A stretch of DNA of 40,296 nt, from NCBI GenBank assembly GCA_944363685.1, contig CALVUV010000001.1, forward strand, positions 1 through 40,296, read 5' to 3'. The notes beneath the pieces were generated by a model. The model saw only the letters and a list, made by a program, of their open reading frames with translations, did no database searches and had not been told where the DNA came from. The translations under genes were made by a program, and so were the position numbers. The DNA is from an uncultured Bacilli bacterium. Its GTDB lineage: Bacteria; Bacillota_I; Bacilli_A; RF39; UBA660. Shown in pieces: positions 2,618-40,045 of the stretch (position 1 is the stretch's first letter; every line of letters starts with the position of its first letter).

Positions 2618-2691
2618 GCCGGTATAGTTTAGTGGTAAAACAGATCCTTGGTAAGGATCAGAGGTAAGTTCAATTCTTACTTCCGGCACCA
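2618..2691 (+). tRNA. tRNA-Thr (anticodon GGU), CCA encoded
   Basis: Cloverleaf folded by hand: acceptor GCCGGTA/TTCCGGC, D arm TAGTTTAGTGGTAAAA, anticodon stem GATCC/GGATC with loop TTGGTAA, T arm GTAAG-TTCAATT-CTTAC, and terminal ACCA. Confidence 0.9.
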
Positions 2692-2736
2692 GTAAGCAAT
2701 CTGTCCGAACTTTTATAGTTAAGGGCTTAAATATAC

Positions 2737-2770
2737 AAGTATCAATTTCTAAGGAAGTTGGTACTTTTTT
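2737..2770 (+). terminator. rho-independent terminator after tRNA-Thr
   Basis: Stem AAGTATCAA / TTGGTACTT (one G-T pair) followed by TTTTT. Confidence 0.5.
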
Positions 2771-2799
2771 AGTGTTTAAGAAAGAAAGGACAGGTTTAA

Positions 2800-3075
2800 A
2801 TGGTAAATATTATAAAGGAAAAATTGGAAATTGATAACGAATTAAAGAAAAAAATTGAATTTATATGTAGTTTTTGTAATACTACTCCAATTATTATTAA
2901 TGGTAATATAAGAAAAATTAATAAAACAAATTTAAATTATATTGAACCTCATAGAATAATTATTAAAGGTATTACATTTCTAGCATTTAATTATTCTAAT
3001 GAAATATTTGTTGAAAATTTATCTAAAAACATTAAATTATCAGATTTAGAGACCTATATAAAACAAATAAACTAA
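2800..3075 (+). CDS. hypothetical protein (91 aa), island cargo
   Basis: ORF with AAAGGA upstream of the ATG. No recognizable motif. Confidence 0.5.
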   Translation: MVNIIKEKLEIDNELKKKIEFICSFCNTTPIIINGNIRKINKTNLNYIEPHRIIIKGITFLAFNYSNEIFVENLSKNIKLSDLETYIKQIN

Positions 3076-3162
3076 TTATATATAAATATACCAACTTCTT
3101 CTAAAATCACCTTTAAATAGGCAAAAAATGGGAATTATGTCTTGATTTTGCATCAGAAAAAA

Positions 3163-3191
3163 TTGACACCTATAGGTTTTTATGATATAGT
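3163..3191 (+). promoter_or_regulatory. sigma-A type promoter for the 192-aa cargo gene
   Basis: TTGACA (3163-3168), a 17-nt spacer ending in TGA, then TATAGT (3186-3191). Confidence 0.5.
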
Positions 3192-3215
3192 AATCCTCAA
3201 TTTAAGGGGGATATT

Positions 3216-3794
3216 ATGGAAAAGAAAGATTCTTTATTAATGTTAAAATATATGATATCAGAGGGATTTAATCCTAACAATTATGAAAGAATATTAGAAT
3301 TATTACAATCGGCACCACTATCATTATCAAAAAATTTAACAGAGTATAATCCATATTTATTATCTAATAAAGTAGTTTATTCAGAATTAGATGAGTATGG
3401 TATTGATGGAGCATATGGTTATTTGGAAGATAGTGAAATTTTGGTTCCTAAATCAATTTATAATGATAATCATTTTTTATATTCACCAGTAAAAAGATTG
3501 TATCCAAAACATAGTTATGGTGCACCAACTATTGATGAATTTGGAACTGTTATCTTTTTGGAGGATACATTAGAGGCAAAAACTAATGAAATCTATAATG
3601 CTATTAAGAATAGTTTAAATTTCAAAGATTTATATTTTGGATTTATCACAGAAATGTATCCACAAATAGATTATGGCGATCAAAGATTAGTATATGTGTT
3701 CCACCAATTAATGAATCAGTCAGATGGTTATAAATTATCATATGAAACAATTAGTGAAGAAAATAAAAAACTATATTTAATTAAGAAGAAATAG
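3216..3794 (+). CDS. hypothetical protein (192 aa), island cargo
   Basis: ORF with a strong AAGGGGG ribosome-binding site, its own consensus-like promoter and a terminator. No recognizable motif. Confidence 0.6.
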   Translation: MEKKDSLLMLKYMISEGFNPNNYERILELLQSAPLSLSKNLTEYNPYLLSNKVVYSELDEYGIDGAYGYLEDSEILVPKSIYNDNHFLYSPVKRLYPKHSYGAPTIDEFGTVIFLEDTLEAKTNEIYNAIKNSLNFKDLYFGFITEMYPQIDYGDQRLVYVFHQLMNQSDGYKLSYETISEENKKLYLIKKK

Positions 3795-3799
3795 AGGTG

Positions 3800-5721
<1,922 letters not shown>

Positions 5722-5861
5722 CTTTTTCTAAAAAAGTTATAACAATCGTGGTAAGTTTTGTTTGCAAAGCAAATGAAATTAGCGATAGATTGTTTAAAAG
5801 TCTTATGTAGTTTTATTCCATTACGAAGTTTTGGAATATTACGAAATAAGACAGGTGGATT

Positions 5862-5931
5862 CTAAGGTTGCCTAAACCTTAGCCCCCATATTTTGATATA
5901 AACAACGTGCAATGTCAAAATATATAGGGGG
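5862..5931 (+). promoter_or_regulatory. candidate oriT (nested inverted repeats upstream of the relaxase gene)
   Basis: IR-a is CTAAGGTT-GCCTA-AACCTTAG (5862-5882). IR-b is CCCCCATATTTTGA ... TCAAAATATATAGGGGG (5883-5931), with loop AAACAACGTGCAATG. Its placement directly 5' of mob is typical of MobV oriT sites. Confidence 0.4.
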
Positions 5932-5940
5932 TTAGAGATT

Positions 5941-7359
5941 TTGACAAACCAAAATTACCCTACTATAAATAGTAGGACTCTTGTTTATAAAGGCGGTTAT
6001 AAAAATATGGATGATAAGGAAGAATTATCTTATTCGTTACATTTAAGTAATGATAAAAATAAATCAAAGAAAGCAAGAAGAAGTGTAAAAAATACTGAAA
6101 CTGGAACTACTTCTCTATCTAATAATGCAATACAAAATCATCAGCAATTATCAAAAGTTGATAAACATAATTTACGAAAATATGATGATGATAAAGAATT
6201 AATCTACACGATTAGAGGTACTTCATCTATTGTAGAAGATACTAAAAATTTGTATCTAGAATTGTTTGAAAATGCAAGAATTAAATACAACGAAAAACAA
6301 ACTAGAAATGATAGAAAGATAGAAAACTATTTTAATCATATCTCAAATGATAATAAAAGAGATCTTGCTTGTGAGATTATCATTGAACTTGGCGACATGG
6401 ATTTTTGGGTTGATAAAGATGATAAATTTAAGCATAAAATGATAGAAGTTTTTAGAGAACAAATAGCAGATTTAGAAGAAGTTGTACCTAACTTTAAAAT
6501 AGCAAATGCCACCATTCATTTTGATGAATCTAGTCCACATTTACATATTGTTGGAGTGCCTTTTAAAGATAGAATGAAAAATGGTATGGAAAAACAAGTT
6601 GGTAAATCCGATGTCTTTAATAAAATAAGTTTAGTCAATATTCAAGATAAAATGAGAGAATATTGTATTAATTCGTTCAATAGAATTTATCATTTAAACT
6701 ATACTCTTAAAATAAAAGAAGAAGGTAGAAATGTTGATATTAATGTTGCAAATATGAATGAATATAAAAATTTCAAACAAGAACAAGAAAAATACAAAAA
6801 ACAACTAAAAGAATTAAATAGTAAAGCAGATGAATTACAAAATAAATCTAATGAGATTAATGGTATTATTGATAATTTAAAACCTACTATTATGAATAAA
6901 AGTAATTACACTATTTCAAATGAAGATGTAGATAAAATCAAAAAATATATAGAACAAACCAATGATACTACTTCTAATTTAAGAGATGCAAATGATATAA
7001 ATATAGTCTTACAAAAATATGAAGATGATTTAAGAGAACATTCTAATGAAGTTATAAATTTAAAAAAGAAAATTAAAACTCGTGATGATAGAATTGAAGA
7101 ATTAGAATATGATTTAAATGATGCTAACGAAACTATTGATGAGTTAGAAGACAAGGTATCAGAACTTCAAAATATAGTTGACTACTTTAAAAAGTTATGG
7201 AAAAAGTTTATAGAATTTTTACAAAACAAATTCTTTTCTAATGATAAATATGATGACTTTATAAACGATTTATATGATGAAGATATACTTGATGACAATG
7301 ACATTGAGATGATACAAAATAACAAAAATAATGATAAAAGTGATGATTTTGAAAGATAA
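5941..7359 (+). CDS. mob: MobV-family (Mob_Pre) relaxase / plasmid recombination enzyme with a long coiled-coil C-terminus
   Basis: HFDESSPHLHIVGVP matches the MobV HxDExxPHxH metal-binding motif, and KHNLRKY matches the HxxR motif. The TTG at 5941 is preceded by AGGGGG. An alternative ATG lies at 6007. Confidence 0.8.
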   Translation: MTNQNYPTINSRTLVYKGGYKNMDDKEELSYSLHLSNDKNKSKKARRSVKNTETGTTSLSNNAIQNHQQLSKVDKHNLRKYDDDKELIYTIRGTSSIVEDTKNLYLELFENARIKYNEKQTRNDRKIENYFNHISNDNKRDLACEIIIELGDMDFWVDKDDKFKHKMIEVFREQIADLEEVVPNFKIANATIHFDESSPHLHIVGVPFKDRMKNGMEKQVGKSDVFNKISLVNIQDKMREYCINSFNRIYHLNYTLKIKEEGRNVDINVANMNEYKNFKQEQEKYKKQLKELNSKADELQNKSNEINGIIDNLKPTIMNKSNYTISNEDVDKIKKYIEQTNDTTSNLRDANDINIVLQKYEDDLREHSNEVINLKKKIKTRDDRIEELEYDLNDANETIDELEDKVSELQNIVDYFKKLWKKFIEFLQNKFFSNDKYDDFINDLYDEDILDDNDIEMIQNNKNNDKSDDFER

Positions 7360-7432
7360 TTGATAAAAATATGGTAAAATATATGTTAGATGGTTTAATA
7401 AGTTTAGTAAATTGTAGAAGGGATGGATATAG

Positions 7433-8269
7433 ATGGAAGAAATTGCTATTATTTCAGACATACATGGTAACTTAGAAGCATTACAAAAAGTCTTAGAAGA
7501 TATAGATAAAAGAAATATTAACCAAATAATTTGTCTAGGCGATATAATTGCTAAAGGAACTAATATGCATGAATGCTTAGAATTAGTAAAAAAAAGATGT
7601 AGCGTTATTATAAAGGGAAATTGTGAAGATTATTATTCTAGAAATGACATAGATATTAGTGAATTACCACAATCTAGTCAAATAAGAAGGAATTGGATAA
7701 GAGAAAAATTTAGTAATGAAGAATTATCTTATTTACAATCATTACCATTTTGTTATGAAATGTATATTAGTGGACGATTAGTAAGAATGCTTCATGCCCA
7801 TCCAAATGGAATAGATATTCATGTAGGGAATATTGATAAAATTGAAAATTTATATAGTATTTTTTTACCAAGTGAAAATACAATAACACAAGAAAAAGCA
7901 GATATAGTTTTATATGGACATTCTCATATGCAATATATGCAAAAATTATATAATAGAGTCTTAATTAATGTTGGTTCTGTTGGAAATTCTATTGATGTAT
8001 TTAGAAATGAAGAAAAGGATGCAAATATTAAAAACACCGTTAATGCAAATTATTTTATAATAAAAGGTAAAATGAATTCTAGAGATTATGATGTTTTTTC
8101 CTATGAATTTGTTAATATTCCATATGATATTGAAAAAGAAATTTCTAAAAATAAAGATAATGTTGATTTTGAAGATTATGAGGAAGAAATTAAATATGGA
8201 AGATATAGAGATATGCAAAAAGTTAAAAAAACTTTTAGTAACCGTGGAATAGACATTGATAAAATATAA
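7433..8269 (+). CDS. calcineurin-like metallophosphoesterase (YfcE/MJ0936-type) with a roughly 90-aa C-terminal extension
   Basis: Ordered MPE motifs are present: SDIHGN, LGDIIAKG, GNCE, HAHP, GHSHMQ, and a trailing VGSVGN segment. GAAGGGA ribosome-binding site. Confidence 0.8.
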   Translation: MEEIAIISDIHGNLEALQKVLEDIDKRNINQIICLGDIIAKGTNMHECLELVKKRCSVIIKGNCEDYYSRNDIDISELPQSSQIRRNWIREKFSNEELSYLQSLPFCYEMYISGRLVRMLHAHPNGIDIHVGNIDKIENLYSIFLPSENTITQEKADIVLYGHSHMQYMQKLYNRVLINVGSVGNSIDVFRNEEKDANIKNTVNANYFIIKGKMNSRDYDVFSYEFVNIPYDIEKEISKNKDNVDFEDYEEEIKYGRYRDMQKVKKTFSNRGIDIDKI

Positions 8270-8351
8270 ATAAGTGTTATAATTATATTAAGAAATTGAT
8301 ACAAATTTTGTATTGATTACTTACTTTAGCGAAAAAAAGTTTGAAATAACT

Positions 8352-8380
8352 TTCTTACTCGCACCAGATTTTGATATCAA
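8352..8380. repeat. second copy of the tRNA-3'-end-like motif, followed by a perfect 10-bp palindrome
   Basis: TTCTTACTCGCACCAGATT (8352-8370) shares TTCTTAC and GCACCAG with tRNA-Thr 2674-2692, and GCACCAGATT with 10287-10296. The palindrome TTGATATCAA (8371-8380) follows. Confidence 0.4.
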
Positions 8381-8474
8381 ACTTATACTTTTCAATTTTT
8401 CATAATAGTTGATTAGTTTGAGTTTTATTATTTAAAATAATATAATTTTTAGACTTTTTAGGGGGGGAGTAAAA

Positions 8475-9029
8475 ATGTTTGTACCACATAGTCCAGATAT
8501 GGTTTATGATGTAGAAAGGCATTCTGATAGATGTGTTTGTGGATGTTCTGCACTTGCCACTTGTCATGATTATAATAGTGTTAATTGTGGCTACTGTGAG
8601 AGCTGTGCTAAAAAAAGAACAGATTTTGTTAATGATATTACAGGTATAATATCAGTTGGTGAAGAAAACAGTTTTGAATATGCAATATTAGCCACAATTG
8701 AAAATATAAGGCAAAATATATTTAAAGAGAGATTTTATTATATGGTTGATAACTATTTTGGGCAACATCAAAATAATAGTGAATTTACTGAACCATATGA
8801 TGATGCATCCTTTATAGCAAAAATATATAGAGAAAAATATTGTATGATGCAAACTTTTATATCTAGTATTGTACTACAAAATGAAAATAAATTTTCTAAA
8901 TCAAGCAGGATTAAAAGAGTATTTTCTTATTATAAATCAGAATTAGAAGCTACAATAAAAAAAGATGAAGATATTCTAGAAAAATGGACTGCTAAGGCTG
9001 GAGGTTATTCTTATAAAAAAGCAAAATAA
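8475..9029 (+). CDS. hypothetical protein with a Cys-rich N-terminus (184 aa)
   Basis: Strong GGGGGGAG ribosome-binding site. The N-terminal segment CVCGCSALATCHDYNSVNCGYCESC holds 8 Cys in about 25 residues. Confidence 0.6.
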   Translation: MFVPHSPDMVYDVERHSDRCVCGCSALATCHDYNSVNCGYCESCAKKRTDFVNDITGIISVGEENSFEYAILATIENIRQNIFKERFYYMVDNYFGQHQNNSEFTEPYDDASFIAKIYREKYCMMQTFISSIVLQNENKFSKSSRIKRVFSYYKSELEATIKKDEDILEKWTAKAGGYSYKKAK

Positions 9030-9075
9030 CATGTTATTATCCTTTTCTCAGTGAAGAATACAAAAATATTAGAAA

Positions 9076-9113
9076 AAGAATACGACTACTTTAATTATTC
9101 GTATTCTTTTTTT
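9076..9113. terminator. bidirectional rho-independent terminator between convergent genes
   Basis: Stem AAGAATACG / CGTATTCTT, flanked by an A-run upstream and a T-run downstream. Confidence 0.6.
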
Positions 9114-9185
9114 ATATTAAACTTTTGAAAATTTAGAAACATACTCGCACATTGGCAAAAAACAACAATCATGTGTATTAAAATA

Positions 9186-9644
9186 TTATCTTGTTTTACC
9201 CTTAGAATATGGTTCATAAGATAAGTATTCTTCATTTTCATCTTTAATCCAATAACCAAATCTTCCAACTAACTTAACAGGTTTCTCTAAAGGTTTAAAA
9301 TCAAGATTTTTTGTATTTGAGGCTTTCGCTCCTTCAGCAAGTGATGCAGTAATATGAGGTGTTTTTAAAACAGATGGATTTTGTTCATCATAATTTATAT
9401 AATAATCTTTCAATTCATCAGGAAATGTTATTTCAAATCCACTATTTTGTCCATCATTACCATAACCTATAAGATATACTTCAAATGTTTTTCCTACTAT
9501 ATCATTAAAAATCTCATCAGTTGTTGGGTGATATTTAAAAGTACAATGTATTTCATCATCAACTCTAGCTAATTTTTCTGTTTCTAACGAATGTATCAAA
9601 TCGACCATATCTGCTTCAAAAAATATTCCTTCATAACTTAACAT
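9186..9644 (-). CDS. 2H-superfamily phosphoesterase-like protein (LigT/cyclic phosphodiesterase fold), 152 aa
   Basis: Two H-x-T-x motifs in hydrophobic context, at the spacing expected for 2H enzymes: EIHCTFKY (His33) and TPHITASL (His97). AGGGAGA ribosome-binding site. It lies 14 nt downstream of the HAD gene. Confidence 0.5.
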   Translation of the reverse strand: MLSYEGIFFEADMVDLIHSLETEKLARVDDEIHCTFKYHPTTDEIFNDIVGKTFEVYLIGYGNDGQNSGFEITFPDELKDYYINYDEQNPSVLKTPHITASLAEGAKASNTKNLDFKPLEKPVKLVGRFGYWIKDENEEYLSYEPYSKGKTR

Positions 9645-9658
9645 ATATATTTCTCCCT

Positions 9659-10117
9659 TTAATCTATTAATTCAGAATCTTGACATAATATTATGTTTTT
9701 CAAACCATCATGAACAGTTCTCAATGTTTCATTGTCATCATCAATAAAAATAATTTGTTCATCATTTTTTAAAGATTTTAAATAATTCAATTTTAATTCT
9801 TTTGATGAATAATGTGGATAACTTTCTTTTGGAATAATAGTTCTTTTATCTTTTTCAAAGAAAGGTGCATATTTATTTAACCACTCATTTTTTTCGCTTA
9901 CTTCATTATTAAATCTACAAACCGATAATATATGTAGTTCAACATTTTTCAAATTGCATAATTGACTTAATGTTTCAATATTTGTAGTTAAAGGTCTTTT
10001 ATTTACAAAATCAAGTGGTTTTCCAAAATCATAAGAAGCAATTACACCATCCATATCAACATAGATAATAGTTTTTTTATCTTCAGTTAATCTCTTTATC
10101 AATTCATAAAAATGCAT
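9659..10117 (-). CDS. HAD-superfamily 5'(3')-deoxyribonucleotidase-like (NT5C type) hydrolase
   Basis: HAD motif I IYVDMDGVIA and motif IV IFIDDD. Size and layout fit the NT5C family. Confidence 0.6.
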   Translation of the reverse strand: MHFYELIKRLTEDKKTIIYVDMDGVIASYDFGKPLDFVNKRPLTTNIETLSQLCNLKNVELHILSVCRFNNEVSEKNEWLNKYAPFFEKDKRTIIPKESYPHYSSKELKLNYLKSLKNDEQIIFIDDDNETLRTVHDGLKNIILCQDSELID

Positions 10118-10261
10118 ATAGCATACCCATTTCTTTAAAAATAAAAACTATATTAATTATATTACATTATAATCAAAATTTAAATAGAAACATTGATTTT
10201 TGCTATATGTAACACTATACTTTTATTAGTTAATAGTTATTACTAACTTTTTTTGTCCAAG

Positions 10262-10296
10262 AAGTTCTTCTACTTCTTACCTAACGGCACCAGATT
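10262..10296. repeat. degenerate copy of the tRNA-Thr 3' half (candidate distal att / displaced tRNA end)
   Basis: AAGTTC..TTCTTAC..CGGCACCAG (10262-10293) parallels tRNA-Thr 2666-2692 (AAGTTCAATTCTTACTTCCGGCACCAG). The downstream CGAACTTT also recurs after the tRNA. Confidence 0.4.
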
Positions 10297-10346
10297 GATT
10301 GTTACTCGAACTTTCTTCGAACAGTAATAAATATTAATTAGAAATA

Positions 10347-11687
10347 CTATCTAGTTTTTTTTAATACATATGGTCTTTCTTCATTATTTGGTTTTATTAA
10401 ATTTATAGCAGAGTATTCTCCTGCAAAAATTCTAAACATTGCACTACTAATAGTATCATCAAAAACTGTTTTCAGGCTTCTAGCACCACTTTTTAACGCA
10501 ACTGCTTTTTCTGCGATGTAATCGATAAAATCTTCATCGTATGAAAAATCTATATTCATAGATTCAAATAATAATCTATAAGTATTTAAAGGACTAAAGT
10601 TAGATTCTATTAAGATTTTCTTGATATCTTCTTTTGATAAAGAGTTCATAGCAACCATTTTCGAAAATCTCCCCATTAACTCTCGCATTATTCCATAATT
10701 TACAAAATCTGTTGGTGATACATTTGAGTAATCATCATTGTCTACTATTCCTGTAAATGCCCCTAGGGCAACAACTGAAAGTCTTGATGTATCAAATTTT
10801 TTATCTTCAAAATAAAATGTTGAACCATCTAATAATTTCAATAATGATCTTTGAACGCCAATTCTTGATATATGATCACGAGAATTATTATCTTTTTCTG
10901 CTAATTTATCAAATTCATCAATAACTAAAATACCTTTTTCTGCTTTTTCCATATCTTTTCCAGCAGCTAAATATAAATTTTCTAACATATCTTTAATATC
11001 TCTTCCAACATAACCTGTTTCAGAAAGAGATGTTGCATCTTCAATAACTATAGGGATTTTATATATATTAGCAATTCTTTTTAAAATTTCAGTTTTACCT
11101 GTTCCTGTAGAACCATACACAATAATATTTTCTTTTAATTTTGCTATCATATCAAGTCCAAGAGATAAATTTATAACTTTTTGATTTTTAAAAAGTGATG
11201 TTAATATTTGCATAATTTGTTCATCTTGTGAAATAATTGTTTTTTTAATCGCAGAATACATTTGAGATATATCAGTATTGTTATTTAAAATTGTATCATC
11301 ATACTCTTTAGCATTACCGCGTATTTTTTCTAACAATTCTTGATTAGTTATTCTTGTGAAAGTATTATTAAAATCAAGAGCATAATAGTCACCAATGTAT
11401 TCTCGATATTCACTTACAAATTTATCATAATTATATACATGATTATTTTCAGCACAAAGAACATCAAAAGTTTTAAAACCAGCACATTCATAAATAGAAT
11501 TAGAATCTAGTGTTTCTCCAGCTAATTTTCCGTTTAAAACAATAAAATTTCTTCCAGAGTTACCAAAATCGTACCAAAAACCAACACAAGGTTCCAATTT
11601 TTCATAATATATTTGCTTTTTTCCATCAACAATGCATTCTTTTTTTTCTAATACATCGGCTAAACCAACATAATCCATACCATTCAT
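10347..11687 (-). CDS. ClpX-like AAA+ unfoldase lacking the zinc-binding domain and IGF loop, with a novel roughly 170-aa N-terminal domain
   Basis: Walker A GSTGTGKT, pore loop GYVG, Walker B LVIDEFDK, the ClpX-like GVQRSLLKLLDG segment, and sensor-2 GARSLK. The ATG at 11687 is preceded by GAGGTGG. The track ORF extends to 11744. Confidence 0.8.
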   Translation of the reverse strand: MNGMDYVGLADVLEKKECIVDGKKQIYYEKLEPCVGFWYDFGNSGRNFIVLNGKLAGETLDSNSIYECAGFKTFDVLCAENNHVYNYDKFVSEYREYIGDYYALDFNNTFTRITNQELLEKIRGNAKEYDDTILNNNTDISQMYSAIKKTIISQDEQIMQILTSLFKNQKVINLSLGLDMIAKLKENIIVYGSTGTGKTEILKRIANIYKIPIVIEDATSLSETGYVGRDIKDMLENLYLAAGKDMEKAEKGILVIDEFDKLAEKDNNSRDHISRIGVQRSLLKLLDGSTFYFEDKKFDTSRLSVVALGAFTGIVDNDDYSNVSPTDFVNYGIMRELMGRFSKMVAMNSLSKEDIKKILIESNFSPLNTYRLLFESMNIDFSYDEDFIDYIAEKAVALKSGARSLKTVFDDTISSAMFRIFAGEYSAINLIKPNNEERPYVLKKTR

Positions 11688-11746
11688 ATATATTACCACC
11701 TCTACAAGTGGCTTTATTATAGCATAAAATAGTAAAAAATTCAATT

Positions 11747-12754
11747 TTATTTATTAAGATGTTTTTTCTTTTTATGAGATAAACTAACTACTTCTAAACC
11801 TAGTAATTCTATTTTATTAGACAAAAGCTCTTTGTTATTATCTATATCTTTTGATAAATCGGTAGATAGATATTTCTTTAAATCATCTGGAAATACAGTT
11901 ACTACATTCTTTCCACCACTTAACACGCTTGCTAAAAAGTTTGCCCCGGAAGAAATACCTACTCCAAGCCCTAATTTACTTGCTAAAATTCTACTCATAT
12001 TAATAGCATCCAAATCATTAATACTAATAACTTTATCTATCAAATTAAAGTCAACAAGTTTAGGAATAAACTCATCCCCTATTCCTTCAATCTTATGCAC
12101 ACCTATAATTTTCCCACCACTTAAAAGAGGCATTTTATCAGGCTCTAAAACAATAATTTTAATATTTTTATTATACTCTTTTAATCTTTTAGCAACTCCC
12201 ATTAAAGTTCCACCTGTTCCTATACCACTAACAAAGGTATCTATTTCATTAACCTCATTTAATATTTCTTTAGCAGTAGTTAGATAATGAGTTTCTATAT
12301 TTAATGTATTTTCAAATTGTCTTGGCAAAAATCCATTTATTTTAGAAGCAAATTCTTCACTTCTTTTAATCGCTTCCTTAAATCCTCCTTCTTCCTTACT
12401 AACTAAATATACATTAGCACCATAAAGTCTCATTATCTTTATTCTCTCTTCACTCACCCAATCAGGCATAAATATATGAACTGGATGAGAAAAATAAGCT
12501 CCTAATGCTGCAAAAGAAATACCTGTATTACCACTTGTCGCTTCTACAATTGCTTGGTTTTCTTTCAATATTTTTTCTTCCTTTGACTTTTCTATTATAT
12601 GATAAGCGAGACGATCTTTAATACTACCTGTATAATTGTAATACTCTAATTTAGCATAAATATAACCTTCCCTATCCTGATAACGATATTTTATCTTAAC
12701 CATTGGTGTATTACCAATTAAGTTATCTAAGTCATCAATATTTTTTCTAGACAT
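11747..12754 (-). CDS. cysteine synthase family PLP-dependent enzyme (CysK/CysM-like)
   Basis: PLP-lysine motif GSIKDR, the SGNTGIS loop and GIGTGGT. AGGAGG ribosome-binding site. Confidence 0.85.
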   Translation of the reverse strand: MSRKNIDDLDNLIGNTPMVKIKYRYQDREGYIYAKLEYYNYTGSIKDRLAYHIIEKSKEEKILKENQAIVEATSGNTGISFAALGAYFSHPVHIFMPDWVSEERIKIMRLYGANVYLVSKEEGGFKEAIKRSEEFASKINGFLPRQFENTLNIETHYLTTAKEILNEVNEIDTFVSGIGTGGTLMGVAKRLKEYNKNIKIIVLEPDKMPLLSGGKIIGVHKIEGIGDEFIPKLVDFNLIDKVISINDLDAINMSRILASKLGLGVGISSGANFLASVLSGGKNVVTVFPDDLKKYLSTDLSKDIDNNKELLSNKIELLGLEVVSLSHKKKKHLNK

Positions 12755-12871: not shown

Positions 12872-13615
12872 ATGAAAATAATTGATATTTGTGAAGGTTT
12901 TGCAGCTTGTGGCTGTTTAAAACATTATTACAAAAGCACTAACATAAACGACTATATAATTTTTCCACTTGGAATGAGTCTATCAATAGGAGATATAAAA
13001 AATAATCGTATTTATTTTTTAAGAAGATTTTATCAAGATTACAATTATGATTATACTGAGTTGTTAAATAAAATATTAAATAATATTACAAATGACACTA
13101 TAATTAGAATCTGGTCTTCTAAGAAAAATGATGATGAATATATGCTTTTACTATTTCTATGTAACTTTTTAAAAGATAAAATAAATAAAATTAATGTTGT
13201 CTTTGCTAATGATTATAATAAATTTTTATGTAGTATTAATGCTTTAGATTATAGAAAAATTAATGATGTACTAAAATATGAAAAAACTTTGTCTAAAGAT
13301 GAAATTAAAGCTTATGCTAAAGAGTGGAACGACTTAGTTGAAATCAATAGTGAATTAAGAGTGTTAGAAAACGAGAAAGTCAAAAATAAAAAATATTCTG
13401 ATTACTATGATATCATTTTAAATATTTTAAAAGAAATAGCACCTTGTAAAATATCAATCTTAATTGCAGAATGTATGGGAAAAGAAGTCCTTAATGATGC
13501 AGGTGATTTAGTTTATTTAACTTTAATAGACCAATTAATTAATTTAAAGAAAATTAAAATAGTAAAAAAAGGAACAAGACATTTTGTAGATACGATTGAT
13601 TTAAGTAAAAACTAA
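12872..13615 (+). CDS. DUF1835/DUF3658-like protein
   Basis: The N-terminus IIDICEGFAACGCLK, the IRIWSSKKNDDEYMLLLFL segment and LRVLENEKVKNKKYSDYYD follow the pattern I associate with DUF1835+DUF3658 proteins. Confidence 0.5.
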   Translation: MKIIDICEGFAACGCLKHYYKSTNINDYIIFPLGMSLSIGDIKNNRIYFLRRFYQDYNYDYTELLNKILNNITNDTIIRIWSSKKNDDEYMLLLFLCNFLKDKINKINVVFANDYNKFLCSINALDYRKINDVLKYEKTLSKDEIKAYAKEWNDLVEINSELRVLENEKVKNKKYSDYYDIILNILKEIAPCKISILIAECMGKEVLNDAGDLVYLTLIDQLINLKKIKIVKKGTRHFVDTIDLSKN

Positions 13616-14104: not shown

Positions 14105-14171
14105 AAAAGTATCTTTACATATATAAATAAAGTCAATGATTTGAGTAAATTTGCTCTTAATCAATAATAAC

Positions 14172-14200
14172 TTGATTTTTCTCTAAAAAAAGCGTAATAT
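14172..14200 (+). promoter_or_regulatory. sigma-A type promoter for the radical SAM operon
   Basis: TTGATT (14172-14177), a 17-nt spacer, then TAATAT (14195-14200). Confidence 0.45.
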
Positions 14201-14225
14201 AACAAACAAATTAAGGGGGATTTTA

Positions 14226-14981
14226 ATGAAATTATATTATTCTAGATTACAAATCGAATTAACAAGAAGATGCAATCAAAGTTGTGCTCACTGTTGTAGA
14301 GGAGAGGCACAAAATATAGATTTAACTAAAGCGATTGTAGACACATTTTTTGAGAAAAATGATATATATTGTATAAGTAATTTACTTTTTTCAGGTGGAG
14401 AACCTACCTTAAATGGTGAAATGCTTGAATATTTTATTGATAAAATTATAGAAAAAGATATCATAGTTTATAGTTTCATGCTTAGTATCAATGGTTTATC
14501 TTATAGTAAAGAATTAATAAATGGACTAAATAAATTACGAGATTATATTATATTAAAAAGCAATAGTGAAGGATATTATCCTGGTATTCTTATGATTTCT
14601 CAAGATCAATTTCATAAAGAAGCAAATCAAGAAGTAATAGAAAAGTTAAAAGACTTACCCTACTTTTCACCGATTGATAAACATATTATAAAAGAAAAAA
14701 ACATTTTACCATATGGTAGAGCATTAGAAAATGGTTTAAGTAAACAACAACCTGATTTAAGTAATTTAACAAACTATCAAAAAAGCTATAAAATAAAAGA
14801 ATATGAAGGTACTACTTATCTAGTAATAGACTATCAATATATATCTGCTAATGGCAATATTATAAATAATGGCTGTGAGTCTTATGATTTAATGGATGAA
14901 TATGCTTTAGGCAATGTACAAGATCAATCGATTGAAGAAATTCATCTTAAAAACCAAGTAAAAAAATTAACATTAAAATAA
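14226..14981 (+). CDS. radical SAM enzyme, minimal (251 aa), with no obvious SPASM or other auxiliary-cluster domain
   Basis: CNQSCAHC matches the CxxxCxxC motif near the N-terminus, and FSGGEPTL is the SAM-binding GGE motif. AAGGGGG ribosome-binding site. Confidence 0.8.
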   Translation: MKLYYSRLQIELTRRCNQSCAHCCRGEAQNIDLTKAIVDTFFEKNDIYCISNLLFSGGEPTLNGEMLEYFIDKIIEKDIIVYSFMLSINGLSYSKELINGLNKLRDYIILKSNSEGYYPGILMISQDQFHKEANQEVIEKLKDLPYFSPIDKHIIKEKNILPYGRALENGLSKQQPDLSNLTNYQKSYKIKEYEGTTYLVIDYQYISANGNIINNGCESYDLMDEYALGNVQDQSIEEIHLKNQVKKLTLK

Positions 14982-15010
14982 AAAACATATTCAATTAAGG
15001 AAGTGATTCA

Positions 15011-16294
15011 ATGTATAAATATTTTCATGAATTAGAAAACTTAAAATCTTTTAAAACTTATTTAATTAGAAAATCTTTTGACAAAGAACAAGACTTATCA
15101 ATGAAAAACATATTTTTTTCTGATAGTCTATTAAAAAAATTAAGTGAGTTATTTCCTAAAATAAACATAGTAGATAAATTGATAATCGCCCTTAATGAGG
15201 AATTAATAACAAATACACCAACATATAATTTATTACCATATGATACTTGGTTTAATATGGAATGTTTTTTTTATGATAAAGATGAATATTATTTAGAATC
15301 AAATCATTATTTGAGAGAAAAAATAGATTTAACATCTTGGAATTTACAATATACATTAGAAAAAATATCTAAAATGATTAGTTATTTAATTAACTTTTAT
15401 CCAAATTATAAAGAATTTCTATTGAATACACAAAAAGAAATAAAAATAATATTAAATGAATTTTCAATAAAAACAACAATAAAAATTTCTCCTAAAAGTG
15501 ATGGAGAAACAGTTAATTGGCCAAATGCATGGTATATAACTCCTAATGGATATTTATATAATACAGGCTTAGGACATCAAACAGGAAATCTAATTTATTC
15601 TTTTTATTATGTAATATGTGATTTTTTAAAGCATAATAAAAATATACTTAATATAAGCTATTATAGCAAGATTAATAATATATTAAAACGAGGATATATT
15701 ACTTATGGTGAATTTCAAAATTACTCACATTTAACATATAATCTACCAACTATTATTACTCCTGAAGTAGAACATGATATTGTACGTTATAAAAACATAT
15801 TAAAAATGAATGATAAAGAATATAATAAAGCAAAAAATGACCCAGAATTTAAATGGCCAGAACCTGAAAGAAGTTATCAAAAAAATCTTATTACATTAAT
15901 TATTGGCCATTTAGCTGCAGAAACATCATTATATTCTTCATTCATCAAATTGAATGAGTCCCTCTACAAAAACAAGTTAATTGCACAATTAAATACCCTA
16001 GCCATGAATGATTTAAAAGATATATTAATTAGATTTTCTGGATTTCACAAAATTGAATCTACAGTTAAAAATACTATTACTACTTGTTCTTTAAATGGAA
16101 TAACAGAATTTTCTGAATATTTAGAAAAAGGATGGAATTTGCATATAATTCCAGGAATTATATATGATAAAAATTTAGATAAATTAGTTGAAATTGATTT
16201 TAATGAATATTTCATTAGTAAACATTTAGATAATGAAATAGAAAACTATGAAGGAAAAGGTAAAATTTTAATTAAAGATAAATGGATAAATTAA
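15011..16294 (+). CDS. hypothetical protein (427 aa), co-operonic with the radical SAM gene
   Basis: AAGGAAGTG ribosome-binding site, 29 nt after the radical SAM stop codon. No recognizable motif. Confidence 0.6.
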   Translation: MYKYFHELENLKSFKTYLIRKSFDKEQDLSMKNIFFSDSLLKKLSELFPKINIVDKLIIALNEELITNTPTYNLLPYDTWFNMECFFYDKDEYYLESNHYLREKIDLTSWNLQYTLEKISKMISYLINFYPNYKEFLLNTQKEIKIILNEFSIKTTIKISPKSDGETVNWPNAWYITPNGYLYNTGLGHQTGNLIYSFYYVICDFLKHNKNILNISYYSKINNILKRGYITYGEFQNYSHLTYNLPTIITPEVEHDIVRYKNILKMNDKEYNKAKNDPEFKWPEPERSYQKNLITLIIGHLAAETSLYSSFIKLNESLYKNKLIAQLNTLAMNDLKDILIRFSGFHKIESTVKNTITTCSLNGITEFSEYLEKGWNLHIIPGIIYDKNLDKLVEIDFNEYFISKHLDNEIENYEGKGKILIKDKWIN

Positions 16295-17232
16295 ACTCTA
16301 TTCTTCCAATTACCATCTAAAAAGGAAAATAAATTATCAAAAACAATATCTGCTCTTTTCTCCATAGACTCTAAAGAAGAAAATCCCATATGAGGCGTTA
16401 AAATAACATTTTTTGCTTTTAAAAGAGGATAATCTTTATCAAGTGGTGGTTCTTTATCATAAACATCTATCGCAGCACCTCTAATAATATTATTATTTAA
16501 AGCTAAAACTAAATCATCAGTATTAACAATTGCACCTCTTGCAGTATTAATTAAAATAGCACTATTCTTCATAAGAGATAACTCATCTTTACCTATCATA
16601 CCTTTAGTATCATCTGTTAAAGGACAATGTAATGATACAATATCAGATTCTTTTAATAATTCATCTAATTCAACTTGTTCATCAATAAACTCTTCTTTTA
16701 CAATACTTCTATTATAAACAATTACTCTACATCCAAATACTTTACAAAGATAAGCAACACGTCTACCAATCTTCCCTGCTCCAATTATACCAACAGTTTT
16801 ACCACGTAATAAATTACCAACAAATCCTTCTTTAGTACCACCATTTCTAAGACTTTCTTCATTTTCTTTTATATTACGAAGTAACTCTATCATAAAACTT
16901 ATACACAATTCAGAAACAGCATCAGTCGCATAATCTGAAGCATTACTAATATCAATTCCTCTAGTTTTAGCATAACTAACAGGAATATGATCAACACCTG
17001 TAAAAGCAACATCAATATATTTTAATTTGTTAGCATTCTCTATTACTCTTCTATCAAGTGGCATATTAGCAAGCATCAAAACATCTGCATCCTTAACTCT
17101 TTCAATTTGTCTATTAATATCTGAATCTTTTTTATAAGCTATAAAAGTATGTCCCATATCTTCTAACTTATCAATATATTTTTTTATATAATCATCACTT
17201 ACATTTAATTCTTCTAATAACACTATTTTCAA
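16291..17232 (-). CDS. D-isomer-specific 2-hydroxyacid dehydrogenase (PGDH/GyaR-like)
   Basis: NAD-binding motif GIIGAGKIGRRVA and the C-terminal LTPHMGFSS motif. The preferred TTG start at 17232 (MKIVLLEE) lies 9 nt after GGAG. The track ORF extends to 17247. Confidence 0.85.
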   Translation of the reverse strand: MKIVLLEELNVSDDYIKKYIDKLEDMGHTFIAYKKDSDINRQIERVKDADVLMLANMPLDRRVIENANKLKYIDVAFTGVDHIPVSYAKTRGIDISNASDYATDAVSELCISFMIELLRNIKENEESLRNGGTKEGFVGNLLRGKTVGIIGAGKIGRRVAYLCKVFGCRVIVYNRSIVKEEFIDEQVELDELLKESDIVSLHCPLTDDTKGMIGKDELSLMKNSAILINTARGAIVNTDDLVLALNNNIIRGAAIDVYDKEPPLDKDYPLLKAKNVILTPHMGFSSLESMEKRADIVFDNLFSFLDGNWKNRV

Positions 17233-17300
17233 TCTTATCATCTCCAAACATCATACTAATTATAACATTTTTTTAAAATAAATGTATAAATTTTATTTTT

Positions 17301-20543: not shown

Positions 20544-20651
20544 ATAACTAAATTATAACACATTTTACAATTATTAACACTTACAATTTGACAAAATAAT
20601 AAAAATGAACATAAACTAATATTAAGGATAAATTAAATGGAGGTAATAATT

Positions 20652-20785
20652 TATCTTAGCGCCAGAACCATTTTGGTTGACGAGGTTGATAGTTATCGAA
20701 TCTTCGGCGGATGCTATCACGGTTACTAGTCGTTAGATATATGTTAAAAAATAAAATCAATATTATAACAAAGCATATATCAAAG
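20652..20785 (+). promoter_or_regulatory. glmS ribozyme/riboswitch
   Basis: The conserved core AGCGCCAGAAC..GACGAGG..CGAA..TTCGGCGGATGC lies directly upstream of glmS. The predicted cleavage site is between A20658 and G20659. The P4-like stem is GATATATG / CATATATC. Confidence 0.85.
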
Positions 20786-20799
20786 TAGAAGGAGAAGTT

Positions 20800-22599
20800 A
20801 TGTGTGGAATCGTTGGGGCCATTTCTAAAGATAGAAATATATTGCCCATTTTAATAACCGGATTAAAAAATCTTGAATATAGAGGTTATGACTCAGCAGG
20901 AGTTGCCTATCTTAAAAATAATAAAATTAATATTATAAAAACTAGAGGTAAAGTTAATAAACTTGAAAATAAATTAAATAAAAATGAAATAAGTAATATA
21001 GGTATCGCTCATACTAGATGGGCCACTCATGGTAAAGCAACTAGCAATAATGCTCATCCTCATAGATATAAACATATCACTATTGTTCATAATGGAATAA
21101 TAGAAAACTATGAAGAAATGAAAAATACTCTCTTAAAAGAAAAATATAGTTTTAAAACAGATACTGATACAGAAATAGCCGCTGGATTATTAAATTACTA
21201 TTATGAAAAATTTAATGATATTAATAAAGTTATAAAAGAATTTATGAATAAAGTCATAGGTAGTTATGCAATTGTTATCATGATAGATAATGATGTAGAT
21301 AATCTCTATTGTTTAAAAAAAGAAAGTCCTATTGTTATAGGTATTAATGATAATATTAATATAATCGCTAGTGATATAAGAGCTATTACAAAATATACAG
21401 ATAAATATTATACATTAAATGATTATGAATATGCTAAAGTAAATATTAATGATATTATTATTTATGATAAAGATAACAATATTATAAAAAAAGATATAAA
21501 AGAATATAAAGAAGAGAATAACAATAACTCTAAAGGTCATTATAAACATTATATGTTAAAAGAAATAATGGAACAAAAAGAAACAATCTATAATACTGTT
21601 AAACCTTATATAAATAGTATAGGATCTTTATTAAAATTACCTGATTTAACTAAATATAAAGAAATATCTATTGTTGGTTGCGGTACTGCATATCACGCCG
21701 GTTTAGTTGCAAAATATCTTTTTGAAGAATTAACTAATACAAGATGTAATGTCTATTTAGCAAGTGAATATAGATATCAAAATAACTTTCTATCTAAAGA
21801 TACTTTAACCATCTTTATTTCTCAATCAGGAGAAACTGCAGATACTATATCAGCTTTAAAATTAGTTAAGAGTAAAAACTACCCTACTCTTGGAATAATA
21901 AACGTTAAAGAAACTACCATCTCTTCTTTAGTAGATACTTGTCTATATACAAAAGCAGGTAATGAAATAGCAGTTGCATCTACTAAAGCATATACCGCTC
22001 AAATTAGTATTCTATCATTACTTGTTTTAGTAACTGGATATAGAAATAAGACTATTAATGAAAATAAAGTTTTAGAAGTATTAAATGAATTTAAAGATAT
22101 AGATAATTTAGTAACTCCCCTATTAAATAAAAAGAATACATACTTATCAATCGCCAAAAAAATATATAAAGAAAAAGACATTTTCTATATAGGTAGAGGT
22201 TTAGACTATTATCTTAGTATGGAAGGAGCTTTAAAATTAAAAGAAATATCTTATATTCATAGTGAATCATATGCAGCAGGAGAATTAAAACACGGTACTA
22301 TTTCATTAATAGAAAAAAATACTAAAGTATTATCTAGCGCTACTAATACTAAGCTAAACTCTAAAACTATTAGTAATTTAAAAGAAGTATTAGCACGAGG
22401 AGCAGATATTTATTTAATAACTGATGAAAACTATAAAGATGATACTTTTACTATTATAAATATACCTAAAGCAAGTTATTTCATTAAACCTATATTAGTT
22501 ATTATTCCATATCAATTGATCGCTTATTATACTGCATTATTAAAAGGAACAAATATAGATAAACCAAAGAATTTAGCAAAATCTGTAACAGTAGAATAA
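20800..22599 (+). CDS. glmS: glutamine--fructose-6-phosphate aminotransferase (isomerizing)
   Basis: MCGIVG N-terminal nucleophile, two SIS domains, and the C-terminal KPKNLAKSVTVE. Confidence 0.95.
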   Translation: MCGIVGAISKDRNILPILITGLKNLEYRGYDSAGVAYLKNNKINIIKTRGKVNKLENKLNKNEISNIGIAHTRWATHGKATSNNAHPHRYKHITIVHNGIIENYEEMKNTLLKEKYSFKTDTDTEIAAGLLNYYYEKFNDINKVIKEFMNKVIGSYAIVIMIDNDVDNLYCLKKESPIVIGINDNINIIASDIRAITKYTDKYYTLNDYEYAKVNINDIIIYDKDNNIIKKDIKEYKEENNNNSKGHYKHYMLKEIMEQKETIYNTVKPYINSIGSLLKLPDLTKYKEISIVGCGTAYHAGLVAKYLFEELTNTRCNVYLASEYRYQNNFLSKDTLTIFISQSGETADTISALKLVKSKNYPTLGIINVKETTISSLVDTCLYTKAGNEIAVASTKAYTAQISILSLLVLVTGYRNKTINENKVLEVLNEFKDIDNLVTPLLNKKNTYLSIAKKIYKEKDIFYIGRGLDYYLSMEGALKLKEISYIHSESYAAGELKHGTISLIEKNTKVLSSATNTKLNSKTISNLKEVLARGADIYLITDENYKDDTFTIINIPKASYFIKPILVIIPYQLIAYYTALLKGTNIDKPKNLAKSVTVE

Positions 22600-39123: not shown

Positions 39124-39666
39124 TCAATTATTTTTAATTAAAACTTTTTCTTGATCCATTGCTTTAATAGGCATAACTTTAGCATCTCTACCAATACTAT
39201 CTAAAAATTTAAAACACTCTTTCGGTGGTAAAAATATACTCATACCATTATACAAAGGATGAAAAGCAATATAATCTACTTCAAGCAATTCTTCATCTAT
39301 AATTAATTCAATTTCTTTATTATAATCATACATCATATTAAAAATAGATACATTACCTGGTGTAGCATTAATTAATTTTTCCATCACACTAGGACTAACA
39401 AATTCTAACTTGCGACAAGATAACTCATCCTTTAAAGTTTTCAAATCTACTCTTTTAGAACTATCTGTTATAATTAAATATTTCTTTTTCTCTCCCTTTT
39501 TCTCTTGAACAAATAAATGTTTACCTACTGCATAATCATTTTCTAAATAATCATTCCATCTACTATAATCAACACAACAAGTAGCTTCTTTATGTCTAAT
39601 ACAATAATCAAAATGTATATCTCTACTATCAAGAGAATTACAAAATAATAGCCCCTTCTTTGTCAT
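39124..39666 (-). CDS. YbaK/ProX-like aminoacyl-tRNA trans-editing domain protein
   Basis: KHLFVQEKKGEKKKYLIIT..KRVDLKTLKDEL..LEFVSP..TPGNVSIFNMM..IAFHPLYNG follows the YbaK/prolyl-tRNA-synthetase-associated domain pattern. There is no clear SD before the ATG at 39666. Confidence 0.55.
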   Translation of the reverse strand: MTKKGLLFCNSLDSRDIHFDYCIRHKEATCCVDYSRWNDYLENDYAVGKHLFVQEKKGEKKKYLIITDSSKRVDLKTLKDELSCRKLEFVSPSVMEKLINATPGNVSIFNMMYDYNKEIELIIDEELLEVDYIAFHPLYNGMSIFLPPKECFKFLDSIGRDAKVMPIKAMDQEKVLIKNN

Positions 39667-39765: not shown

Positions 39766-40045
39766 ATAAAAGACTAGTCCATACCATAATACTTATAGTA
39801 CTATGGGACGAAACTAGTCTTCCGCGGTGCCACCCAATTTATTATAAAGATTATTACTTTACAATCACTCTTTTCGATTCTATCAAATCTTAGCAAATAT
39901 AACGGTCTGCACCCGGCTTAGTCTACTTAATTTCTTTAAGCACTCCGAAATGTTATTCACTATTCACACTTTACTTGTTTACACCAACCACAAGCTCTCT
40001 ATAAAAGATTAGAAATAGTTACTTCTTTTCATCAATGTTTTGATG
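39766..40045 (-). promoter_or_regulatory. T-box riboswitch leader, probable Asn (AAC) specifier
   Basis: On the minus strand: a stem I GA/K-turn GATGAAAAGAAGTA, an AGAGAG bulge, a distal loop TGGTGTAAA, and a specifier loop AATAACA (AAC at 39952-39954). The T-box sequence AAATTGGGTGGCACCGCG lies at 39823-39840. The terminator is AAGACTAGT..ACTAGTCTT plus TTT (39766-39822). Confidence 0.8.

Follow-up and report, generated by a model that had tools for sequence, protein, structure and literature searches.

A ClpX-derived AAA+ protein family of uncultured gut Bacilli with shortened ClpP-docking and tag-recognition loops and an orphan N-terminal domain

Introduction

What does a ClpX-type ATPase do when its tag-recognition and ClpP-docking loops have been cut short, and is the enzyme gene beside it its partner? 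The question is posed by two adjacent genes in a stretch of 40,296 nucleotides from an uncultured Bacilli bacterium (assembly GCA_944363685.1, contig CALVUV010000001.1), the whole of which is called the window hereafter. The first gene encodes a 446-residue ClpX-like AAA+ ATPase (10347..11687, minus strand, stop codon included); its open reading frame (ORF) starts at the ATG of MNGMDYVG and is preceded by the ribosome-binding site GAGGTGG 8 nt upstream. The second, 59 nt away and also on the minus strand, codes for a 335-residue pyridoxal phosphate (PLP)-dependent enzyme of the PALP/CysK-like family (11747..12754). The sequence-only reading of this DNA had seen here an unfoldase deprived of its ClpP-docking and zinc-finger modules and coupled, as a dedicated remodeller, to the CysK-like enzyme. 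Our analysis retains the first half of this proposal and discards the second. The family to which the AAA+ protein belongs is uncharacterised, derived from ClpX and confined to one lineage, and its N-terminal domain (N-domain) is an orphan. We favour with moderate confidence the hypothesis that the protein works on its own, independently of ClpP, as an unfoldase or remodeller, the N-domain picking a substrate or an adaptor.

A ClpX-type motor with its motifs kept

For the entire AAA+ module, sequence and predicted fold alike point to ClpX as the top relative. It ranks first among the NCBIfam models (179 bits, followed by HslU with 126 bits, each well short of its equivalog cutoff) and is the best phmmer match among PDB sequences (E-value 5e-37). 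The AlphaFold2 model obtained with a 76-sequence alignment (mean predicted local distance difference test score, pLDDT, of 80.7) gives as best Foldseek matches the ClpX chains of ClpXP complexes, with E-values of ~1e-21 and target-normalised template modelling (TM) scores of 0.75-0.83. The distance to canonical ClpX is nevertheless considerable: sequence identity is only about 26-33% and the scores lie around half of the NCBIfam equivalog cutoffs (179 versus 359 bits for NF003745, 154 versus 371 for TIGR00382).

The protein has the same layout as ClpX, a large followed by a small AAA+ subdomain, and shares with it Walker A and B, pore-1 GYVG, pore-2 (GVQxxLLK), the Arg finger and sensor-2 (GARxL[KR]). 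The large subdomain (residues 137-349; 10641..11279, minus strand) contains Walker A GSTGTGKT (11091-11114), pore-1 GYVG (11004-11015) and Walker B ILVIDEFDK (10905-10931), all on the minus strand, together with the Arg finger within ELMGRFSK. The small subdomain (residues 350-446; 10350..10640, minus strand) carries sensor-2 GARSLK and a conserved C-terminal PYVLxKK strand. Conservation of motifs and loops was counted on an alignment of 76 family members. Every one of them keeps Walker A (G[SPA]TGTGK[TS]), Walker B (ILV[ILM]DEFDK), pore-1 (G[YF][VI]G), the pore-2 region (GVQRSLLK), the Arg finger (GRFS) and sensor-2 (GAR[SG][LI]K). Judged by these motifs the AAA+ protein looks like a working motor, as had been proposed from the window sequence.

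Shortened RKH and IGF loops

In ClpX, the RKH loop serves for tag recognition and the IGF loop for docking to ClpP. To our knowledge, the ClpX proteins described so far carry the IGF loop and work with ClpP. The HMMER alignment of the AAA+ protein to ClpX falls into two blocks (query residues 163-291 and 316/320-421), and the segment separating them measures 66 residues in E. coli ClpX (chain 160-225) versus 28 in the query (292-319). The conserved DTSxL...GAFxG core was placed with the help of the E. coli ClpX sequence, its length being exactly that of the 66-residue gap. The shortened RKH-loop equivalent (YFEDKKF, residues 292-298; 10794..10814, minus strand) lacks the RKH motif and belongs to a segment that is 11 residues longer in E. 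coli ClpX. The IGF-loop segment (VDNDD, within the shortened loop equivalent TGIVDNDDY, residues 312-320; 10728..10754, minus strand) is 27 residues shorter. The length of both loops is invariant across the 76 aligned family members, none of which has an [ILMVF]GF tripeptide in the IGF region. As far as can be judged from the alignment, the ATPase and substrate-threading machinery is intact and the RKH and IGF loops are cut to short turns of fixed length. The loss of the IGF loop and the shortening of the RKH region, first noticed in the window protein, are therefore borne out at the scale of the family, with no intact IGF or LGF tripeptide in any member.

The Cys4 zinc-binding N-domain of ClpX is also lacking. 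No Cys is conserved in the N-domain among the 76 members, whose Cys counts vary from 0 to 7, and this domain is therefore not a zinc-binding domain. Likewise, a tblastn search with a ClpX zinc-binding domain query found no match in the window or in the surveyed loci of the family, which sample about 1% of each genome.

The AAA+ protein could still feed ClpP, HslV or another peptidase if it docked elsewhere than by the IGF loop, for instance by its C-terminal PYVLxKK segment. HslU docks to HslV through its C-terminus, and the hslV and hslU genes are normally adjacent. HslU (ClpY) is a close relative, the second-best family match, which belongs to the same HCLR-clade AAA+ group and is also devoid of an IGF loop. 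Furthermore, the C-terminal segment of the AAA+ protein, which ends in PYVLKKTR, is conserved, with Y440 and L442 invariant in the family alignment. We nevertheless regard such non-canonical docking as quite improbable. In the predicted structure, the conserved residues at the C-terminus make a β-strand packed into the small subdomain (residues 440-444 pairing with 425-430), and the C-terminus is rich in Lys and Arg, with neither the hydrophobic docking tail of HslU nor an HbYX motif. The I-domain that HslU has inserted between Walker A and Walker B is missing too, the alignments to HslU skipping it and covering two stretches. Finally, tblastn with ClpP and HslV queries detected no homologue in the window or within 6-8 kb of the AAA+ gene in any of 95 loci (~0.9 Mb in total), a search of about 1% per genome that informs on adjacency only.

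An orphan N-domain

Homology to ClpX starts near residue 137, so the N-terminal part of the protein comprises a domain of about 125 residues (residues 1-125; 11313..11687, minus strand) and a low-confidence linker of about 11 residues (residues 126-136, KEYDDTILNN...; 11280..11312, minus strand). The linker appears flexible, with pLDDT <50 at residues 125-135. The sequence-only reading had rightly seen a domain unrelated to the Cys4 domain of ClpX and had made it too large, at 170 residues. Modelled alone with AlphaFold2 from 25 homologues, the β-rich N-domain reaches a pLDDT of 90.2 and a predicted TM score of 0.79; a long β-meander is followed by helices, three in number, and two short strands.

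The fold search supports the novelty claimed for this domain. Foldseek gave nothing significant in PDB (best E-value 0.23) or in BFVD (best E-value 0.04), with TM scores ≤0.37 among the 50 matches listed for each database. The N-domain profile has no match to PDB sequences at E-values up to 10, Pfam scans of 25 N-domain members returned scattered single matches of which none is consistent, and NCBIfam and PHROGs provided no identity for it. A phmmer search of 1.84 billion representative proteins yielded 54 matches, all of them fragments or full-length members (~440-480 residues) of the same family. Sequence change has been far more rapid in the N-domain than in the motor, mean pairwise identity in the family alignment being 39% for the former versus 76% for the AAA+ module.

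Distribution, subfamilies and genomic context

More than 100 full-length homologues, with 56-92% identity, were found, nearly all in gut metagenomes. The sole name given to any of them by its source is "AAA family ATPase [Bacilli bacterium]", and no account of this family came up in our literature search on bacterial ClpX paralogues that lack the IGF motif or act without ClpP. When 185,579 species-representative genomes were scanned, 79 loci emerged, all in uncultured metagenome-assembled genomes (MAGs) labelled mostly as Bacilli and for the rest as Tenericutes, Erysipelotrichaceae, Clostridia, Mycoplasmatota, Bacillota/Firmicutes, Oscillospiraceae and Muribaculaceae. Three of the loci lie in single-contig or complete assemblies of 1.2-1.5 Mb, and sporulation genes are present in several of the genomic contexts. 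Complete or nearly complete genomes with a family member are OZ007022.1 (1.52 Mb), DAJPHG010000001.1 (1.19 Mb) and the circular JBAMOY010000001.1 (1.20 Mb). The family is restricted to uncultured, low-GC gut Bacilli; the G+C content of the window is ~25%. A phage or plasmid origin of the AAA+ gene was considered and rejected: collections of phage and plasmid sequences yielded only canonical ClpX or HslU, at ~30% identity.

The N-domain sequences divide into two distantly related subfamilies, A (29 loci, including the window) and B (38 loci), the best E-value across subfamilies being 2e-9. Genes of both are found in tandem in locus L057 (4444-7335) and on separate contigs of one and the same MAG in two cases (L026/L039 and L016/L080). 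Between paralogues, identity is ~25% in the N-domain and ~65% in the AAA+ module. The existence of two paralogous subfamilies suggests two specificities or hetero-oligomers, and a role of the N-domain as specificity domain fits a paralogue split that lies mainly in the N-domain. A few members are seemingly split into two ORFs (L027, 6001-7352; L040, 5656-7005; L096, 7789-9158), which may be due to frameshifts, pseudogenes or assembly errors.

Gene neighbourhoods were compared in 85 loci (AAA+ gene ±6-8 kb), 79 of which are the species-representative ones. Clustering of all their ORFs revealed no conserved neighbour of the AAA+ gene. The commonest neighbour clusters encode ABC transporters, two-component systems and the alpha subunit of DNA polymerase III, each limited to sub-clades. 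The orientation of neighbours is near random, roughly one flanking gene in two lying on the strand opposite to the AAA+ gene.

The CysK-like neighbour

The product of the neighbouring gene scores below the cutoffs for the housekeeping cysteine synthases (289 versus 351 bits for TIGR01139, 301 versus 344 for TIGR01136). Its best solved relative is PDB 5B53 (311 bits, 51% identity over 315 residues), the next-best solved cysteine synthase reaching 229 bits. The 5B53 protein is Fn1055 (CysK2) from Fusobacterium nucleatum, a cysteine (hydroxyl) lyase whose reaction turns L-cysteine plus water into L-serine plus H2S (PMC9865163; PMC9600241). Thr73, Ser74, Gln147 and Asp232 are given as its catalytic residues, the last of them being reported as critical for L-cysteine specificity (PMC12940168). 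T73, S74, Q146 and D227 of the CysK-like protein align with these positions, the specificity Asp thus being kept, and the PLP lysine is K46. It is reasonable, from this sequence relationship, to assign the enzyme to the known Fn1055-type, H2S-producing subtype rather than to standard CysK. The window copy differs from Fn1055 by a strain-specific C-terminal extension of 11 residues (LSHKKKKHLNK; 11747-11781) that results from loss of the stop codon, its relatives ending in ...VVN* or ...VVS*. No riboswitch or T-box was found upstream of the gene. The earlier proposal of a gene lacking a sulfur-regulatory leader was right in this respect; its view that the enzyme is probably not the housekeeping CysK is reasonable as well, with the qualification that an already known subtype accounts for it.

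Is the AAA+ protein a dedicated remodeller or activase of this enzyme? Such a role would resemble the action of mitochondrial ClpX on ALAS, or the function of CysK as obligate partner of another protein. There is a precedent for a ClpX-type unfoldase activating a PLP enzyme without ClpP: mitochondrial ClpX activates ALAS by partial unfolding that gates PLP access (PMC12994072). In the window both genes share a strand, 59 nt separate them, no terminator-like site is seen in this gap, and the PLP enzyme departs from the canonical housekeeping CysK. The comparison of loci argues strongly the other way. A tblastn search with the window CysK found no match within 6 kb of the AAA+ gene in any of the 85 loci. 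The gene order DUF1835 – PALP – AAA+ – transketolase is met only in same-species contigs, with 92% identity in both proteins. An AAA+ protein 83% identical to that of the window is encoded between an MMPL transporter and transposases, without a PALP neighbour, and a 78%-identical CysK (L094) between yunB and a UvrD-like helicase, with no AAA+ gene near. Even within the species, contig L093 keeps a 95%-identical CysK with syntenic flanks and has the AAA+ segment swapped for an unrelated ORF of 309 codons, the replacement segment (7962-9428 of this contig) lying between tRNA-Thr and cysK. The 309-residue product has no Pfam or NCBIfam match, and its sole PADLOC match is marginal (Cas8b, E-value 0.0028).

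The spacing of the pair is equally variable. The intergenic region of 59 nt (11688-11746) is specific to the strain of the window, versus 154 nt in contigs L091 and L086, and in the relatives with the longer gap CysK ends 11 residues earlier. The gap contains a strong promoter-like site for the AAA+ gene (11716..11744, minus strand) composed of TTGAAT, a spacer of 17 nt and TGcTATAAT, an extended -10 element; the same-species contigs conserve it as TTGATT, 17 nt and TGTTATAAT. The CysK and AAA+ genes owe their adjacency to recent descent within a single species and are probably transcribed independently. Because they are not co-conserved, the idea of a dedicated pairing fails, CysK was rejected as a conserved partner, and a role of the AAA+ protein as activase of the adjacent enzyme appears extremely unlikely.

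The tRNA-proximal variable slot

The sequence-only reading had correctly placed the pair at the border of a mobile region. Comparison with contig L091 of the same species, which does not have the element, delimits an integrative mobilizable element of 7.7 kb (2690..10354) that runs from the exact 3' end of tRNA-Thr (2618-2691) to a few bases from the stop codon of the AAA+ gene. Among its products are a large serine recombinase (3817-5721), a Mob_Pre relaxase (5941-7359), a metallophosphoesterase (7433-8269) and a HAD/NT5C-like protein (9659-10117); a number of further ORFs have no family assignment. Since the element inserted there, the genes downstream of the AAA+ gene are its cargo and not operon partners. 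Contig L086 has a related element at the same site with other cargo, including a radical-SAM gene. In the species of the window, the AAA+ gene occupies a tRNA-proximal variable slot.

This setting brings up the alternative that the AAA+ gene is an accessory gene of a mobile or variable pool, for example a single-gene ATPase directed against phages or mobile elements, in which the variable N-domain would sense an invader protein and the motor would dismantle this protein or a host target. Two different mobilizable elements (window and L086) have entered the slot that separates cysK from the 3' end of tRNA-Thr, and in L093 the unrelated ORF takes the place of the AAA+ gene there. Contexts vary between species, some of them with transposases or Bro-N/RhuM genes, and both the fast evolution of the N-domain and the paralogous expansion would suit such a role. 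In 10 loci (L004, L036, L038, L040, L044, L046, L048, L054, L080 and L083) the AAA+ gene is followed within 1 kb by a tRNA gene in convergent orientation, mostly tRNA-Leu, also tRNA-Arg, -Thr and -Met; no locus has one upstream. However, much of this association is probably shared synteny within subfamily B, and tRNA proximity was rejected as a sign of island origin, the downstream excess being modest and mostly explained by that synteny. PADLOC gave for the AAA+ protein only weak, generic P-loop matches of partial coverage (DolB, E-value 1.7e-8; IetA, 5.5e-8) and for the CysK-like protein no match; membership in a defence system was rejected on these generic AAA matches. Nothing nearer than canonical ClpX at ~30% identity exists in the phage and plasmid collections, no nuclease, TIR or protease effector is fused or adjacent to the AAA+ protein, and the commonest neighbour clusters look ordinary chromosomal when their representative sequences are inspected by eye. 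In our opinion an accessory or defence role is possible, though not likely.

Other features of the window

A second strain-variable segment is present at 14122-17300. It carries genes for a small radical-SAM protein (14226-14981), a 427-residue protein without family assignment (15011-16294) and a D-2-hydroxyacid dehydrogenase (16291-17247). At this site L091 has ~0.5 kb with a homologue of the window ORF 9186-9644, which in the window is part of the mobile element.

A DUF1835/DUF3658 gene (12872-13615, plus strand) is divergent from the CysK-like gene. This arrangement is kept in all same-species contigs (L086, L091, L093) and is not seen beside the 78%-identical CysK of L094.

The window also includes ordinary chromosomal landmarks, namely transketolase, SirA, a glmS ribozyme with glmS, a T-box and three tRNAs. 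The glmS ribozyme (20647-20791) precedes glmS (20800-22599), and the T-box leader (39801-40044), at the far end of the window, lies upstream of the ORF 39124-39666; both score above their Rfam gathering thresholds.

Proposed mode of action and significance

The hypothesis of a stand-alone unfoldase or remodeller can be put as follows. The AAA+ gene would have a promoter of its own, the Fn1055-like enzyme being an unrelated neighbour, and the AAA+ product would assemble as a hexameric ring. The fast-evolving 125-residue N-domain would catch a specific substrate or adaptor at the end of its flexible linker. The ring would then pull the substrate through its pore to unfold or disassemble it without degradation, and would not be coupled to any protease. 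The disassembly of MuA transpososomes by ClpX offers a parallel. Mitochondrial ClpX provides another one, a ClpX-type motor acting as a remodeller, which is the mode proposed here for the AAA+ family (PMC12994072). It differs in being also a ClpP partner according to the same work, whereas the AAA+ family has lost the docking loops outright and has no conserved link to a PLP enzyme.

Several points weigh against this hypothesis. Hexamer formation, ATPase activity and unfolding are deduced from homology. Docking to a peptidase via another surface is conceivable, the tblastn searches with B. subtilis ClpP, HslV and the zinc-binding domain having covered the loci and the window. Moreover, a strain-variable slot beside a tRNA, in which the AAA+ gene is swapped in one strain, suits an accessory or defence function as well as proteostasis.

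A bolder proposal goes further and would make the family a previously undescribed class of bacterial stand-alone unfoldase. A ClpX lineage in gut Bacilli with reduced genomes would have permanently shed its docking and tag-recognition loops, gained an N-domain of new fold, and then split into two paralogues of different specificity that possibly form hetero-hexamers and possibly replace ClpXP where ClpP was lost. We put this forward only tentatively, as the less likely outcome.

The present work does away with an attractive but false functional connection between the AAA+ gene and the CysK-like enzyme. The N-domain, an orphan domain with a confidently predicted fold, becomes a target for structure determination and substrate discovery. 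A conserved, apparently active ClpX derivative from which both the IGF and the RKH loop were deleted would amount to a natural separation-of-function variant, and could show what the ClpX motor does when it works as a remodeller only. Its hosts are abundant uncultured gut Bacilli with small genomes, and the family may report on a rewiring of proteostasis in these bacteria.

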